From Escherichia coli (GTDB lineage: Bacteria; Pseudomonadota; Gammaproteobacteria; Enterobacterales; Enterobacteriaceae), in NCBI GenBank assembly GCA_902500055.1, contig GCA_902500055.1_4131.1: a DNA stretch of 64,000 nucleotides; one strand, given 5' to 3'. A program made the position numbers and the translations under genes. Below the pieces are notes generated by a model. That model did not search any database. It worked only from the letters and a program-made list of their open reading frames with translations, and was not told where the DNA came from. This document shows positions 30,467 through 42,315 of the stretch, piece after piece (position 1 is the stretch's first letter; the number at the start of each line of letters is the position of its first letter).

Positions 30467-30475
30467 ATTAATATA

Positions 30476-30502
30476 CCAGTACTTGATACTGGCTTTTTTT
30501 GA
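30476..30502 (+). terminator. family C cassette terminator hairpin
   Basis: CCAGTACTTGATACTGG followed by T7. Confidence 0.6.
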
Positions 30503-30534
30503 TTAAATATAGTATAATGAATAAAGGAGGAAAT

Positions 30535-31644
30535 ATGTTACCTTTTGTAAGAATGGTTAAGTACGGGAATATTGCACCAGTACCGAAAAAAATAAAGAAA
30601 GTTATAGCAGGATATGATAATTTATATGTACTATATGGTGATGGTTCGCTATATGGTTGTGGAATCAATAACTATCAACAGTTAAATATTGATGGAACTG
30701 CTACACAAAATAATTGGGTACTAATTACCAATGGTGTTAGTAATGCATGGGCTGGTGGATACAATATTTTATATTTGAAAGAAGATAAATTTATAATGCA
30801 CGGAACTAATGTCTCATTAGGTTTAGGAAATACTACAATTCCATTAGGTGGAGTAGATGTAACTTCTTCATTCCCAGATATCTCTAATATTAAAATGATA
30901 TCCATTGGTTTTGATTCAATGCACTATGTTAGTGCTGATGGTACAACTGTATATGGAAGAGGTATGAACACAAATGGTTCTGTTGGTTCAGGTAGTACTT
31001 ACTCACAGAGTACTTTCACTTCAGTACTGAATAATGGAACTAATCAGGTTATTGATATATTTGGTAACGTTAATAATACAGTGCTTCTAACATCGAATGG
31101 TGAGCTTCGAGCATGTGGGACAAGTGCTTATGGTTCTATAGGAAATGAAACTGGTAAGTGGACATCGTTTGGTTTAAAATTATCTGGCACTAAAATAATG
31201 GGTGGTAATGGGTATAGTACGCTTGCATATACAAATTCGGGAATGTACCACTCAGGGTGGCAGTTAAATGGGGAACTAGGAAATGGTTTAGATACTAACG
31301 TACAGGTATATCCATTTCAATTTAACTCTAAAACGATAGATAGCAAGATAGATAAAATTGCCAAATCATCATCTGGGTCATATGTTAACATGTACTCAAC
31401 AACAGAAGGAAAGATATATACGACAGGTTCGTTTGGTAAAAACGGGTCAACTACTGCATTGAATTTGTTCACCAATACATTAACACTTATAAATTACAAT
31501 CCAGATACCGCCTCGTTGTATACGTGCACAAACTTCAGTGTTGTGTATGATGGTAATGAAACTATTGCTGTAAGTGGTAGTCCTACATATGTACCAGGGG
31601 GCGTTGCCGCTAATAGATGGACTACAATTCCATTACCCAAGTAA
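30535..31644 (+). CDS. family C member 3: N-terminal peptide + RCC1-like beta-propeller
   Basis: TATAAT, AGGAGG, MLPFVRMVKYGN; repeats LYGCGINNYQQL, VYGRGMNTNGSVG. Confidence 0.8.
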   Translation: MLPFVRMVKYGNIAPVPKKIKKVIAGYDNLYVLYGDGSLYGCGINNYQQLNIDGTATQNNWVLITNGVSNAWAGGYNILYLKEDKFIMHGTNVSLGLGNTTIPLGGVDVTSSFPDISNIKMISIGFDSMHYVSADGTTVYGRGMNTNGSVGSGSTYSQSTFTSVLNNGTNQVIDIFGNVNNTVLLTSNGELRACGTSAYGSIGNETGKWTSFGLKLSGTKIMGGNGYSTLAYTNSGMYHSGWQLNGELGNGLDTNVQVYPFQFNSKTIDSKIDKIAKSSSGSYVNMYSTTEGKIYTTGSFGKNGSTTALNLFTNTLTLINYNPDTASLYTCTNFSVVYDGNETIAVSGSPTYVPGGVAANRWTTIPLPK

Positions 31645-31650
31645 TACTAT

Positions 31651-31678
31651 GCCAGTACTTGATACTGGCTTTTTTTGA
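31651..31678 (+). terminator. family C cassette terminator hairpin
   Basis: GCCAGTACTTGATACTGGC followed by T-run. Confidence 0.6.
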
Positions 31679-31711
31679 TTAAATATAGTATAATGAATAA
31701 AGGAGGGAATT

Positions 31712-32839
31712 ATGTTACCTTTTGTTAGAATGTTTGATTATGGGAATATAATCGAAGTTAATAATATAAAGAAAAGTGTTGTTAGTTACACTCTTGAAAT
31801 GTTTCTAATGCAAGATGGCACTGTATATGCACACGGTGAAGATTCAAACTATAATGCGGGTTTAAGTACAAAGTTTGTATCGTTAGGAGCAGTTCAACAA
31901 ATCACAACTGAAGTTGATGACTTATGGTTAGGATCGTTTTCCGTTGTTATTAAAGGTGATAAAATATATGGTTCAGGTTCAACATATGCATTCACGAATT
32001 CTAATACTTTCCAACAAGGATATACTGACTGGGCTGTGTATTTCACTGGTATAGATGTTACCCAAATTAAAAAAATGTTATGTGGTTATACAGCATTTAC
32101 ATTAATGAAAGACGGAACACTTTATGGAAGAGGATGGAATCGAAGTGGTTCATTAGGTTTAGGACATAAAAATTATGTTTCAGCGTGGACTGTACTTGAC
32201 ACTAATGTGGATAATATATTTGGCGGTTACCTTGGCGATACATTGTTTAAGATTAAAAACGATGGAACTGTATATGGTTCAGGTTCAAATAACAGCTTTC
32301 AAGTTAAAGCAACATCGGGTGATGCAACCACATTTGTTCCGTTGTTTGATGATATATCTTATGATATAAAATGCAGTTTTGTTTCTGGTGTTGGTTTTGT
32401 AATGATAACATCTGATAATAAAATATATGCAACTGGAACTACTTTTGCTGGTAGTGGTGCACATAGTAAAGTTTTTGATGTTGGTTTTACTATAGGTGAT
32501 ATGAGTAATATATATCATCCTGATTCGTTGGACTATTCGACTAGTGTTGTATTTTTAATTAATGCAGATACAAACAAACTAATAGCAACTGGGCATACCC
32601 CATTTACGGGAAGTAGTTCAAGTTCCCTTCCATATTTTACAGCATTTCAAGAATTCAATTTTACATCGTTCAATTCGAATACACGATATAGTGGGTCTTT
32701 ATACTGGAATACATTTTACGAAGGTAATAATGTATGGATGAATGGATATAATCCTAAAAATACGGGTGGAAAGAATTTCTCATTGTGTTCAATACCGTTA
32801 GATACTATTATTACTAAGCAAATTGATTTACCTTTTTGA
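31712..32839 (+). CDS. family C member 4: N-terminal peptide + RCC1-like beta-propeller
   Basis: MLPFVRMFDYGN; repeats LYGRGWNRSGSLGLG. Confidence 0.8.
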   Translation: MLPFVRMFDYGNIIEVNNIKKSVVSYTLEMFLMQDGTVYAHGEDSNYNAGLSTKFVSLGAVQQITTEVDDLWLGSFSVVIKGDKIYGSGSTYAFTNSNTFQQGYTDWAVYFTGIDVTQIKKMLCGYTAFTLMKDGTLYGRGWNRSGSLGLGHKNYVSAWTVLDTNVDNIFGGYLGDTLFKIKNDGTVYGSGSNNSFQVKATSGDATTFVPLFDDISYDIKCSFVSGVGFVMITSDNKIYATGTTFAGSGAHSKVFDVGFTIGDMSNIYHPDSLDYSTSVVFLINADTNKLIATGHTPFTGSSSSSLPYFTAFQEFNFTSFNSNTRYSGSLYWNTFYEGNNVWMNGYNPKNTGGKNFSLCSIPLDTIITKQIDLPF

Positions 32840-40966: not shown

Positions 40967-40973
40967 ATTTTAT

Positions 40974-41002
40974 GCCAGTACTTAACACTGGCTTTTCTTT
41001 TT
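40974..41002 (+). terminator. family C cassette terminator hairpin
   Basis: GCCAGTACTTAACACTGGC followed by T-run. Confidence 0.55.
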
Positions 41003-41037
41003 GATTAAATATAGTATAATGAATAAAGGAGGATTTT

Positions 41038-42243
41038 ATGTTACCTTTTCCAAGGATGTTAAAATACGCAAATAAAATGAAAGTTCCTGAAGTGAAAGAA
41101 ATCTTTATGTACAATGGTTATAGTGCGTCAGTTATTCCAGCAACAGCACTCTTACTATTATATAAAAATGGAGACTTAATGGGTATAGGTGGAACTAGTT
41201 CACAAAACTATGGATTCGGAAATGGTGTACCTAATGCGAAAGTAAAAGAGTGGGCTTTAATATACCAAAATGTAAAACGTTTTAGAACAGCCCAAGGTTC
41301 TTTTAATTTAATCCAAACCGAAGATAATAAATTTTATTACAGTGGCGTAGGTAGAGCTATTGGTACAGGATTAAGTACTGTCAGTACTTATACTGATTGT
41401 ACTTCATATTTTACATCAGTATTCAATGCAACACAATTGTCGCAAATTAAGGACATTCAAATTGTAGGGGAGGGTATTTTTGTTTTACTTCAAAATGGTA
41501 CGCTATATGGAATGGGGGCCAATACACAGGGATATTTTGGTAATAACACAACCACAAGATTATCAACATTTACTTCAATTAATACGAATGTGGATAGTGT
41601 AAAAACAGGTTCAAGTGCAGTGATTGTGCAGAAAATTGATAAAACACTTTGGGTCACTGGTCAAAACACATGGGGTTCACTTGGTATAAGTAATGGTGAA
41701 ACTAACATTAGAGTATGGACACAAATGGGTGCATTAGCCAACAATACTGTTATACATTATGAACTTGGTGGGAGTGCATCATGGGTTGTATCTAAACACA
41801 ACACGAATAATACATATACAGTTCGTGCAAGTGGGATTCAATCGGAAGGTAACTTGGGTAATAGTTCAGCCGCTTCATCAGGGACAGTATTATCTACAAT
41901 CTCCACTCTACCAATATCAGATAATATGGAAATGAAATCAAATTCATTAACATATGGTGGGCTTACGGTTAAAACTAACAATTCACTTTATATGTGTGGT
42001 ATAAACACATATGGTAGGCTCGGTCGCGGTAATACCACATCAAGTACTACATTTGTAGTTCCAGTTGATGCACCTAAAGTTGGCAGCATCGAGTTATTCT
42101 GTCCAAGTGAATGTACAAATGTGTATATGGATAATCAAGGGGATGTGTATTTGAGTGGCTATATCCCACAAGCAGCAGGGACAACAGTTTCTGATTACTA
42201 CACTAAATTCCAATTATATCAAATACCCAGTCGTGGTATATAA
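41038..42243 (+). CDS. family C member 12: N-terminal peptide + RCC1-like beta-propeller
   Basis: MLPFPRMLKYAN; repeats LYGMGANTQGYFGNN, LYMCGINTYGRLGRGN. Confidence 0.8.
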   Translation: MLPFPRMLKYANKMKVPEVKEIFMYNGYSASVIPATALLLLYKNGDLMGIGGTSSQNYGFGNGVPNAKVKEWALIYQNVKRFRTAQGSFNLIQTEDNKFYYSGVGRAIGTGLSTVSTYTDCTSYFTSVFNATQLSQIKDIQIVGEGIFVLLQNGTLYGMGANTQGYFGNNTTTRLSTFTSINTNVDSVKTGSSAVIVQKIDKTLWVTGQNTWGSLGISNGETNIRVWTQMGALANNTVIHYELGGSASWVVSKHNTNNTYTVRASGIQSEGNLGNSSAASSGTVLSTISTLPISDNMEMKSNSLTYGGLTVKTNNSLYMCGINTYGRLGRGNTTSSTTFVVPVDAPKVGSIELFCPSECTNVYMDNQGDVYLSGYIPQAAGTTVSDYYTKFQLYQIPSRGI

Positions 42244-42250
42244 AAAAAAT

Positions 42251-42278
42251 GCCAGTATTTTGTACTGGCATTTTTTTG
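42251..42278 (+). terminator. family C cassette terminator hairpin
   Basis: GCCAGTATTTTGTACTGGC followed by T7. Confidence 0.6.
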
Positions 42279-42315
42279 TCCTAAATATAATAACGATTTA
42301 CATTTGGAGGATACA

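Follow-up and report, generated by a model that had tools for sequence, protein, structure and literature searches.

The 64,000-nt stretch of DNA analyzed here (the window in what follows; contig GCA_902500055.1_4131.1 of the Escherichia coli assembly GCA_902500055.1) contains a tandem array of 13 plus-strand genes (28399-43468), each of which starts with the same short peptide tag, MLPFxRMxxYGN, and nine of which follow a complete copy of the same composite junction, referred to here as the cassette. This arrangement probably represents a recombination cassette similar to the promoter-early-stem-loop (PeSL) elements of other phages, which has been extended into a portable tag for association with the virion. 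The locus would then be a tandem array of high variability, encoding globular proteins that associate with the virion and are mostly lectin-like, its genes linked by a composite unit that may supply a terminator for the preceding gene, a promoter-like block and a Shine-Dalgarno sequence for the next, and the first 12 codons of that gene, which encode the portable N-terminal peptide M-L-P-F-x-R-M-x-x-Y-G-N. At the protein level, this free N-terminal extension would label bodies of very different kinds to be incorporated into the virion, most likely by docking them on a common structural partner, such as the hair or fiber structures of the RaK2-like jumbo phages. At the DNA level, the ~110 nt of near-identical junction sequence would provide a substrate for the phage’s own homologous recombination, through which whole modules could be inserted, deleted, replaced, or translocated with the expression of their neighbors undisturbed, and short conversion patches could move variants of the tag between copies.

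The source of the window is assigned by its sequence to an Asteriusvirus-type (121Q/PBECO4/phAPEC6) jumbo coliphage, and the G+C content of the 64 kb is 36%. The right flank of the array (43500-64000) is 97-98% identical to more than 20 genomes of the 121Q, PBECO4, phAPEC6, SP27, and G17 group, with ~90% of its length covered, whereas the coverage of positions 30000-42500 is at most 39% in every one of the 37 matching records, which indicates a hypervariable island within an otherwise conserved genome. The arrays of 10 related genomes were retrieved for comparison (the counts of gene families refer to the first eight), and these relatives contain 9-17 tagged genes per genome. A preliminary description of this DNA had placed the repeated unit at 30468-42315, and the array does occupy this interval, although its true extent is larger, from 28369 to 43468.

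The full cassette is ~65 nt long, and consists of a GCCAGTAC-loop-GTACTGGC hairpin, a T-run, and ATTAAATATAGTATAATGAATAAAGGAGG. It is complete in front of the genes that start at 30535, 31712, 32912, 35296, 36537, 37800, 38609, 39797, and 41038, while the gene at 42316 is preceded by a strong hairpin and a degenerate promoter block, and carries a diverged tag. The gene that leads the array (28399) has the promoter block without the terminator, and the genes at 29317 and 34115 have only a ribosome-binding site plus the tag, and are coupled to the preceding gene. The claim of a unit repeated at 10 or more junctions is borne out by nine full cassettes and two partial versions. The features of the array, all on the plus strand except where indicated, are as follows:

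28331, CAGTACTG just upstream from the array-leading block, as part of a divergent minus-strand promoter (28350-28322)
28369-28398, array-leading promoter-like block and Shine-Dalgarno sequence (AAATATGATATAATGAATAAAGGAGGAAAT), without a terminator
28399-29304, gene 1, tag MLPFVRMFDYGN on a Kelch beta-propeller body
29317-30466, gene 2, tagged RCC1-like protein of a 382-residue family, 90-94% identical in the relatives, with only a ribosome-binding site at its junction
30475-30534, cassette 1, with hairpin (30476-30492), T-run, ATTAAATATAGTATAAT, and AAAGGAGG
30535-31644, gene 3, tagged RCC1-like propeller, body DNA 100% identical to fEgEco12 and ECO103
31651-31711, cassette 2, hairpin at 31651-31669
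31712-32839, gene 4, tagged RCC1-like propeller, absent from the 10 retrieved relatives, 98.9% identical in vB_Ec-M-J
32847-32911, cassette 3, hairpin at 32847-32866
32912-34105, gene 5, tagged RCC1-like propeller, 99.5% identical to fEgEco12
34115-35224, gene 6, tagged RCC1-like propeller, 9-nt junction with gene 5, ribosome-binding site only
35228-35295, cassette 4, hairpin at 35228-35253
35296-36465, gene 7, tagged RCC1-like propeller, 94% identical to G17 only
36470-36536, cassette 5, hairpin at 36470-36492
36537-37727, gene 8, tagged RCC1-like propeller, tag MLPFARMMNYGN
37734-37799, cassette 6, hairpin at 37734-37752
37800-38537, gene 9, tag on a glycine-rich (PF21722-type) body, not RCC1
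38543-38608, cassette 7, hairpin at 38543-38565
38609-39718, gene 10, tagged RCC1-like propeller, body 99.5% identical to the fEgEco12 gene
39733-39796, cassette 8, hairpin at 39733-39751
39797-40966, gene 11, tagged RCC1-like propeller
40974-41037, cassette 9, hairpin at 40974-40992
41038-42243, gene 12, tagged RCC1-like propeller, tag MLPFPRMLKYAN, 99% identical to PBECO4 and JP4
42246-42315, cassette 10, strong hairpin at 42246-42274 and degenerate promoter block TAAATATAATAACGA...TTTGGAGG
42316-43468, gene 13, RCC1-like, diverged tag MLPFGRIITSSK, split by a frameshift into 42316-42540 and 42572-43468

The conservation of the unit has sharp limits. Among the nine full copies, the DNA identity, as a pairwise mean, is 0.80 in the cassette and 0.85 in the 36-nt tag, but drops to 0.31 where the upstream gene ends (3' end) and to 0.39 immediately downstream from the tag. 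The sequence ATGTTACCTTTTG has 11 exact copies in the window, on the plus strand only and between 28399 and 39797, with diverged copies at 41038 and 42316 (17 matches with up to two mismatches, compared with 4.1 expected), and 10 copies of the 26-nt block AAATATAGTATAATGAATAAAGGAGG are present when up to three mismatches are allowed, eight of them exact, with none expected. The residues M1, L2, P3, F4, R6, Y10, and N12 of the tag are invariant in the window copies. The hairpin had been described literally as GCCAGTACT(N3-5)AGTACTGGC, a pattern that finds no match in the window because one arm is shortened or altered in most copies, as in GCCAGTACTTGATACTGGC. A looser pattern, together with a terminator scan, recovered 10 hairpins followed by T-runs, with energies of -6.5 to -16.1 kcal/mol and z-scores of -3.3 to -6.3, and the equivalent sites carry a terminator annotation in the G17 and UE-S1 records. 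The stem-loop can, on the prediction from its fold and T-run, act as a transcription terminator; positions 27500-44000 have no match in Rfam. The stem GCCAGTA(C)/(G)TACTGGC is retained in 83 of the 105 hairpins from 11 genomes, in which the loop has at least 18 variants and compensatory changes are absent, and this points to the conservation of the stem sequence, and not merely of its structure.

The choice of codons in the tag is equally constrained, as had been proposed. At the positions where the paralogues of the window share an amino acid, the codon is the same in 83% of the cases in the tag, and in 47% in the body. In a set of 92 tags from eight genomes, TTA and CCT are found in all 92, TTT in 91, AGA in 90, and GGG in 63, while these codons contribute, respectively, 53%, 29% (CCA being preferred), 73%, 50%, and 13% of the codons of their amino acid in the bodies, with CCT and GGG running counter to the local codon bias. 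On this evidence from the codons, the proposal that the tag is conserved as DNA, and not only as a peptide, is correct for the genus Asteriusvirus. One conceivable cause of the fixed codons, a hairpin between the Shine-Dalgarno AAAGG and codons 3-4 (CCUUU), was discarded, given that the leader and tag region is unstructured (folding z = +0.7 relative to shuffled sequence) and this complementarity is absent in Salmonella phage Munch.

The modules behind the tag are exchanged extensively among the relatives. The 99 genes of the first eight genomes form 40 families at 90% identity and 27 at 60%, and the order of the genes is partly maintained, with whole modules being inserted, deleted, replaced, or moved. 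One module family, for example, is the first of the array in 121Q, UE-S1, and phAPEC6, and internal in PBECO4, G17, SP27, and slurp01. When the window was aligned with seven relatives, 53 of the 78 ends of the similarity blocks fell between positions -80 and +45 of a tagged ATG, where 11% were expected, and none fell inside a module within the array, the few that missed this interval lying slightly beyond +45, in the last gene, which is split (43178), or in the flanks. As conserved cassettes extend the BLAST alignments, the test is circular in part, a problem that does not affect the observations that follow. The Kelch module of gene 1, which is absent from the 10 retrieved relatives, is inserted exactly between two identical tags, and it is 99.7% identical in vB_Ec-M-J and 99.3% identical in BF17. 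The two modules missing from the 10 relatives are 99% identical in vB_Ec-M-J, which implies that all the modules derive from a shared pool.

The tag and the body are also reassorted. The same body family may be found behind different tags (MVKYGN, MIRYGN, MIMYGN, and MFDYGN), and the junction in front of it may be a full cassette in one phage and a coupled junction in another, as in the case of the gene 6 body, which is preceded by a full cassette in 121Q and phAPEC6, and by none in the window. A total of 37 pairs of orthologs have bodies that differ by no more than 3%, and tags that differ by at least three bases in 36 nt. In the clearest case, gene 10 and its fEgEco12 ortholog, the tags differ at 5 of 36 positions, the bodies at 5 of 1068, and the upstream sequences at 0 of 40 (p = 6e-6), and the difference in the tag is read here as the result of patch conversion. 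Codons 8-9 of the tag are linked to a synonymous TAT/TAC choice at codon 10 (chi-square p = 3e-18), which defines tag haplotypes, each of which is associated with up to 19 different body lengths, including many unrelated bodies. In a comparison of positions 27501-44500 with fEgEco12, ECO103, 121Q, and PBECO4, the left flank and left modules of the window were 99-100% identical to fEgEco12/ECO103, and the right modules and right flank were 98-99% identical to 121Q/PBECO4/JP4, while the right flank of fEgEco12 itself is only 70% identical over 37%. The phage of the window is, from these identities, a recombinant with a crossover inside the array. Taken as sequence evidence, these patterns make it very likely that modules are shuffled and tags converted at the cassette, and the mosaicism, breakpoints, and tag/body reassortment among the 10 related genomes agree with the proposal of a landing pad for the exchange of downstream modules.

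An analogy with PeSLs, namely those of the minus-strand genes, had also been proposed, together with a distinction from them, and both stand. In the T4-type phages, PeSLs combine a terminator and a promoter in one cassette, and supply the homology through which modules are shuffled (Arbiol et al. 2010, PMC2839356; Comeau et al. 2014, PMC4122927). In the two systems, short composite units of terminator and promoter are repeated at the junctions of a hyperplastic region, the flanked genes are inserted, deleted, or replaced between close relatives, the exchange points fall inside the cassette, the sequence of the stem is conserved, and the host phage has T4-like recombination. The exchange points identified in PeSL mini-circles are located between the -10 element, the Shine-Dalgarno site, and the ATG (PMC2839356, PMC4122927). 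The present cassette differs in the absence of a -35 element, and is not recognizable as a sigma70 early promoter, which sets it apart from the PeSLs in this respect; it flanks virion-protein genes of ~1.1 kb rather than small ORFans, and its stem is GCCAGTAC/GTACTGGC rather than GGGG/CCCC. In addition, the homology continues past the Shine-Dalgarno sequence into the 12 codons, so the unit of exchange carries a protein tag.

The tag itself has a wider distribution than the cassette. The peptide MIPFARILDYGN heads tandem genes in Salmonella phage Munch (12 copies), as does MIPFARMIQYGN in Erwinia phage Hallingskeid (10 copies), and related tags are found in Serratia phage BF (MLPFARIVEYGN and MLPFPIISN...), Xanthomonas phage XbC2 (MLPFPQLVQYGN), and Pectobacterium phage CBB (MLPF[PSA]R..Y[GA]N). 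In these distant RaK2-like phages, the codons of the tag vary freely (CCA/CCG/CCT, AGG/AGA, and GGN), and the retention of the peptide despite this free synonymous variation indicates old selection at the protein level. The preliminary description had attributed the conservation of the tag to recombination, which agrees with the DNA haplotypes and the patch conversion, although recombination is not the sole cause, given the selection on the peptide in the other genera. A 30-column profile of the window tags retrieved only 54 clusters from 1.84 billion representative proteins, nearly all of which matched from residue 1. In Munch, Hallingskeid, Serratia BF, XbC2, and CBB, the tag is carried by bodies of the RCC1, Kelch, LamG (concanavalin-like), Gly_rich_2, and phrog_6011 types, with a “virion structural protein” family of 220 residues among them. 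The homologues of the glycine-rich and 220-residue bodies in unrelated phages have other N-termini (e.g., MLEML...) or align only from approximately residue 17-21. By these comparisons, the tag appears as an independent module, older and more widespread than the cassette.

The bodies are diverse even within the window. The amino acid identity between the bodies of the paralogues is 23-44%, except for one pair (63%), and three unrelated folds are represented, that is, RCC1-like propellers (with Pfam matches to RCC1, RCC1_2, and WD40_RLD), the Kelch propeller of gene 1, and the glycine-rich domain of gene 9. The AlphaFold2 model of an RCC1 member, a seven-bladed RCC1-like propeller, has a mean predicted local distance difference test (pLDDT) score of 89, and a TM-score of 0.77-0.79 to UVR8, with the generic seven-bladed propellers UVR8, RPGR, and HERC2 as the closest structures. 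When solved structures were searched, by sequence and by fold, the RCC1-like proteins found counterparts in eukaryotic RCC1-like domains only, and in no phage structure. The model of the glycine-rich member (mean pLDDT 90) is closest to the fiber of cyanophage Pam3 and the tail-tip protein of Bxb1. The pLDDT is below 50 at residues 1-13 of the RCC1 member and residues 1-10 of the glycine-rich member, which suggests, at the level of the models, that the most conserved residues form a free N-terminal tail outside the fold. An arrangement of the tag as an N-terminal “velcro” strand that closes the propeller was rejected, as AlphaFold2 leaves residues 1-13 unplaced and bodies that are not propellers are also tagged.

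Evidence that the virion contains these proteins comes from the literature. The phAPEC6 genome encodes 11 RCC1-like proteins, of which mass spectrometry of purified virions recovered eight, with low peptide counts (PMC7247149). The GAP32 protein gp001, copies of which were noted in 121Q and PBECO4, is a virion protein by mass spectrometry, and CBB_548, 549, 551, 552, and 553 are structural by the same method (PMC5259590). The tagged genes of CBB lie in the same cluster as these five, and the tail hairs of this phage terminate in tiny globular structures (PMC5259590). A free tail, and the occurrence of the tag on diverse virion bodies, suggest a short linear address label for incorporation into the virion, and the role of the tag as a label of virion association is rather more probable than the alternatives taken together. 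The lectin-like and fiber-like types of body favor a role in external binding, and external docking of the tagged proteins has a slightly less than even chance of being correct. The docking function and its partner, the external location, the timing of expression, and a selected, rather than incidental, role for recombination at the cassette are all inferred.

A number of points weigh against the reading of the unit as a recombination cassette joined to a virion tag. Functional constraint on the terminator, the promoter, the ribosome-binding site, and the peptide would explain part of the conservation without any recombination, and the concentration of block ends at the cassettes is partly expected under any mechanism of module swapping. 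The homogenization of the cassettes within genomes is weak, with a distance of 0.155 within and 0.161 between genomes (p ~0.02), compared with 0.097 when one and the same module is taken from different genomes; neighboring cassettes resemble each other somewhat more (0.131). A strong concerted evolution within a single genome was expected, and was not found at these values. This weakness implies that the homogenizing force acts across the recombining Asteriusvirus population, so the earlier suggestion of homogenization by recombination holds for exchange within a shared Asteriusvirus gene pool, and only weakly within a single genome. In the place of a -35 element, 17 nt upstream from the -10 TATAAT, the cassette has the T-run of the terminator (TTTTCT, with 3/6 matches), and a sigma70 scan finds no promoter in it; the canonical T4 late promoter TATAAATA was also sought in the cassette, and is absent. 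The presence of the proteins is known at the level of whole virions, by mass spectrometry. The authors of the phAPEC6 study, for their part, suggested that the proteins order or condense the DNA inside the head (PMC7247149).

This last suggestion is related to two other explanations. The proteins may be the DNA-condensation factors of their annotation, with the tag targeting the DNA or the packaging machinery, as the database names “regulator of chromosome condensation” and “putative DNA condensation protein” would have it. This is very improbable. The name comes from the eukaryotic RCC1 fold only, to which generic seven-bladed propellers are the closest structures, and the extreme variability found between phages that are 97% identical would not be expected of a packaging factor. 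No Ran partner is known in bacteria. The label of “regulator of chromosome condensation” rests on the fold, and the presence of the same tag on Kelch, LamG, and glycine-rich bodies argues against a role specific to DNA. A role inside the head could also be of another type, in which the tag would direct proteins to the capsid as the targeting sequence of the T4 internal proteins does, and the bodies are packed into the head via the scaffold core, trimmed by the prohead protease, and injected into the host, with the array providing an anti-defense repertoire. In T4, the internal proteins have diverse, polymorphic bodies, and nothing in common but an N-terminal targeting sequence of ~10 residues (PMC3012670), T4-like head genes, including the prohead protease, are present in these phages (phAPEC6 Table 1, PMC7247149), and the low peptide counts in the virion, the view of the phAPEC6 authors, and a hypervariability that fits an arms race with host defenses would all agree with this. 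It is nevertheless unlikely, as the conserved (L/I)xE cleavage motif is absent (position 9 is K/D/N/E/Q/R, with nothing acidic fixed), the bodies are rigid propellers, LamG, and fiber-like glycine-rich domains of 25-45 kDa that are typical of surface binding, and the tag, with Pro3, Gly11, and Pro15, does not appear from its sequence to form an amphipathic helix.

If the conservation reflected nothing more than ordinary functional constraint, recombination at the cassettes would be incidental, with no role in shaping the array. Each element of the cassette does have a plausible function, the TTAAATA-N-TATAAT block and the peptide are conserved in distant genera, the leader and tag are unstructured as a translation start should be (z = +0.7), and the cassettes follow their own module more than their genome (0.097 vs. 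0.155). Even so, the fixed positions include some for which no function is obvious (the spacer GAATAA, the sequence of the stem, and synonymous sites that go against the codon bias), Munch and Hallingskeid encode the same peptide with freely varying codons, and reassortment and patch conversion are observed directly, which leaves this explanation slightly behind that of a head-targeted repertoire. The least credible alternative, to which hardly any weight is given, is a recent tandem duplication, in which the cassettes would be alike because the copies are young. Tandem duplication has been proposed for these phages (PMC5646251; PMC7247149), and the phAPEC6 record does contain one duplicated pair of genes, but the 23-44% identity of the bodies, which include unrelated folds, already contradicts this, the synonymous sites of the bodies are at the random level (0.47), and most of the modules have orthologs that are 90-100% identical in other phages.

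The reading of a PeSL-like cassette extended into a virion tag also has to be placed in relation to the T-even internal-protein locus, which encodes diverse proteins with nothing but a capsid-targeting sequence in common (Repoila et al. 1994, as cited in PMC3012670). In both cases, an N-terminal peptide of ~10-12 residues is the sole feature common to unrelated virion proteins (here, on at least five types of body), and the locus is highly polymorphic between close relatives. Here, however, there is no conserved Glu in or after the tag, where T4 has (L/I)xE, and positions 8-9 and 13-16 are variable; the bodies are large and lectin-like rather than small and basic, and are known from whole virions; and a terminator and a promoter accompany each of the 9-17 members of the array. 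The unit belongs to neither the PeSL nor the T-even internal-protein family, and is a variant of a known principle. In phages with multiple tailspikes or fibers (e.g., CBA120, G7C, K1-5, and PhiK64-1/RaK2), a conserved N-terminal anchor is combined with variable C-terminal receptor-binding domains. Here too, a shared N-terminus would attach interchangeable binding modules, with the variable parts differing between close relatives, although those anchors fold as domains of at least ~100 residues within trimeric fibers, rather than a linear peptide of 12 residues on bodies modeled as single globular domains.

A bolder version of the preferred reading, put forward tentatively and rather doubtful as it stands, would make the 12-residue peptide a universal RaK2-like plug that docks exchangeable lectin-like knobs on a socket of the tail or capsid hairs, as combinatorial adhesins, with the cassette and its CAGTACTG stem serving as a dedicated, possibly protein-bound recombination site that reshuffles the repertoire for host range or adhesion to the environment. 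In the literature searched, the array is mentioned only as “RCC1-like / DNA condensation” paralogues, and no description of the cassette or of the N-terminal peptide was found. The cassette extends the PeSL idea, with a regulatory recombination cassette that reaches into the coding sequence, so that the unit shuffled consists of the terminator, the promoter, the ribosome-binding site, and a targeting tag. It would also provide a concrete account of a conspicuous array, wrongly named for “DNA condensation”, in jumbo coliphages that are used therapeutically, as a pool of interchangeable virion modules that bear one address label of 12 residues. Should the tag suffice to bring a protein into the virion, it would offer a simple handle for the display of foreign proteins on these phages, and the module content of the array would be a candidate marker for differences in host range or adhesion between phages that are 97% identical.

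A number of short motifs bear on the type of the putative promoter in the cassette. Its -10 block, AGTATAATG, is the same as that of the early promoters of the minus strand. The cassette also carries ATTAAATA, of which the part AATTAAATA remains conserved in the junctions of Munch and Hallingskeid, and the TTAAATA-N-TATAAT block is retained even in distant genera. The AATTAAATA motif is one base from ATAAATA, a late motif reported for CBB and GAP32 (PMC5259590), and a variant late promoter is the preferred guess here. The T4 late motif TATAAATA is strongly avoided in the window, with one occurrence compared with 13 expected. The sole copy (55444-55451, minus strand) is located 37 nt upstream from the ortholog of 121Q gp199, a virion structural protein, and the motif appears to be functional there, and avoided elsewhere.

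On the minus strand, units at 3942, 5453, 7138, 10138, and 16172 have AAAAAGTACTTGCAT-N-AGTATAATG followed by a GGGG...CCCC stem-loop, with TTGCAT/TTGACA plus AGTATAAT; these sigma70-type promoters with a GGGG/CCCC stem-loop are of the PeSL type, as the preliminary description had stated. The 8-bp palindrome CAGTACTG is present in 72 copies in the 64 kb, compared with ~1 expected, and CCAGTAC in 90 copies, compared with six expected. Approximately 12 of the CAGTACTG copies are found in the spacers of sigma70-like promoters (TTGACA-N8-CAGTACTG-TATAAT), and others inside genes, while 19 copies are concentrated in 20001-24000, mostly in a stretch with few open reading frames (21500-23900). The arms of the cassette hairpin correspond to this palindrome split by a loop, and CAGTACTG could be a site of protein binding or modification. 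The same stretch, poor in open reading frames and rich in CAGTACTG, includes a degenerate tandem repeat with an 8-nt period at 22749-22900 (CGTCTAGC / CATCCAGC ...). A second tandem array, on the minus strand at 23926-28072, contains ~20 small paralogous genes of ~60-80 amino acids, which start with M[HN]KE[YF]Y... and end with ...L[IL]xRY, and is probably the 121Q array of more than 30 similar genes in PMC5646251.

Some minor features of the tagged genes were also recorded. At their C-termini, the RCC1-like bodies share a hydrophobic-x-hydrophobic-Pro(-Lys) motif (IPLPK, IDLPK, or ITMPK), with one invariant Pro, which is retained at the protein level only (e.g., 31630-31644, 35210-35224, and 39704-39718). 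Gene 2 is broken into open reading frames of 239 and 141 amino acids at ~30010-30020, where a run of seven T’s is found here and one of six in UE-S1, in which the gene is intact (382 amino acids); this frameshift may be a sequencing error, a pseudogene, or slippage. The frameshift of gene 13 (~42525-42572) is shared with the relatives, with the first open reading frame stopping at 74 amino acids here and in 121Q, PBECO4, and slurp01, and at 44-52 in G17, SP27, phAPEC6, JP4, and ECO103, and the split gene may be a conserved pseudogene or a case of programmed frameshifting. Its tag, MLPFGRIITSSK, represents a second type, which resembles the MLPFPIIS... tags of Serratia phage BF and XbC2. In the phAPEC6 record (MK817115), which is 2.4 kb longer than the published size of the genome, two adjacent tagged genes (380 amino acids, with tags ...IAPA and ...EAPE) are present twice across the start of the record, which is either a real tandem duplication or an assembly artifact at the point of circularization.

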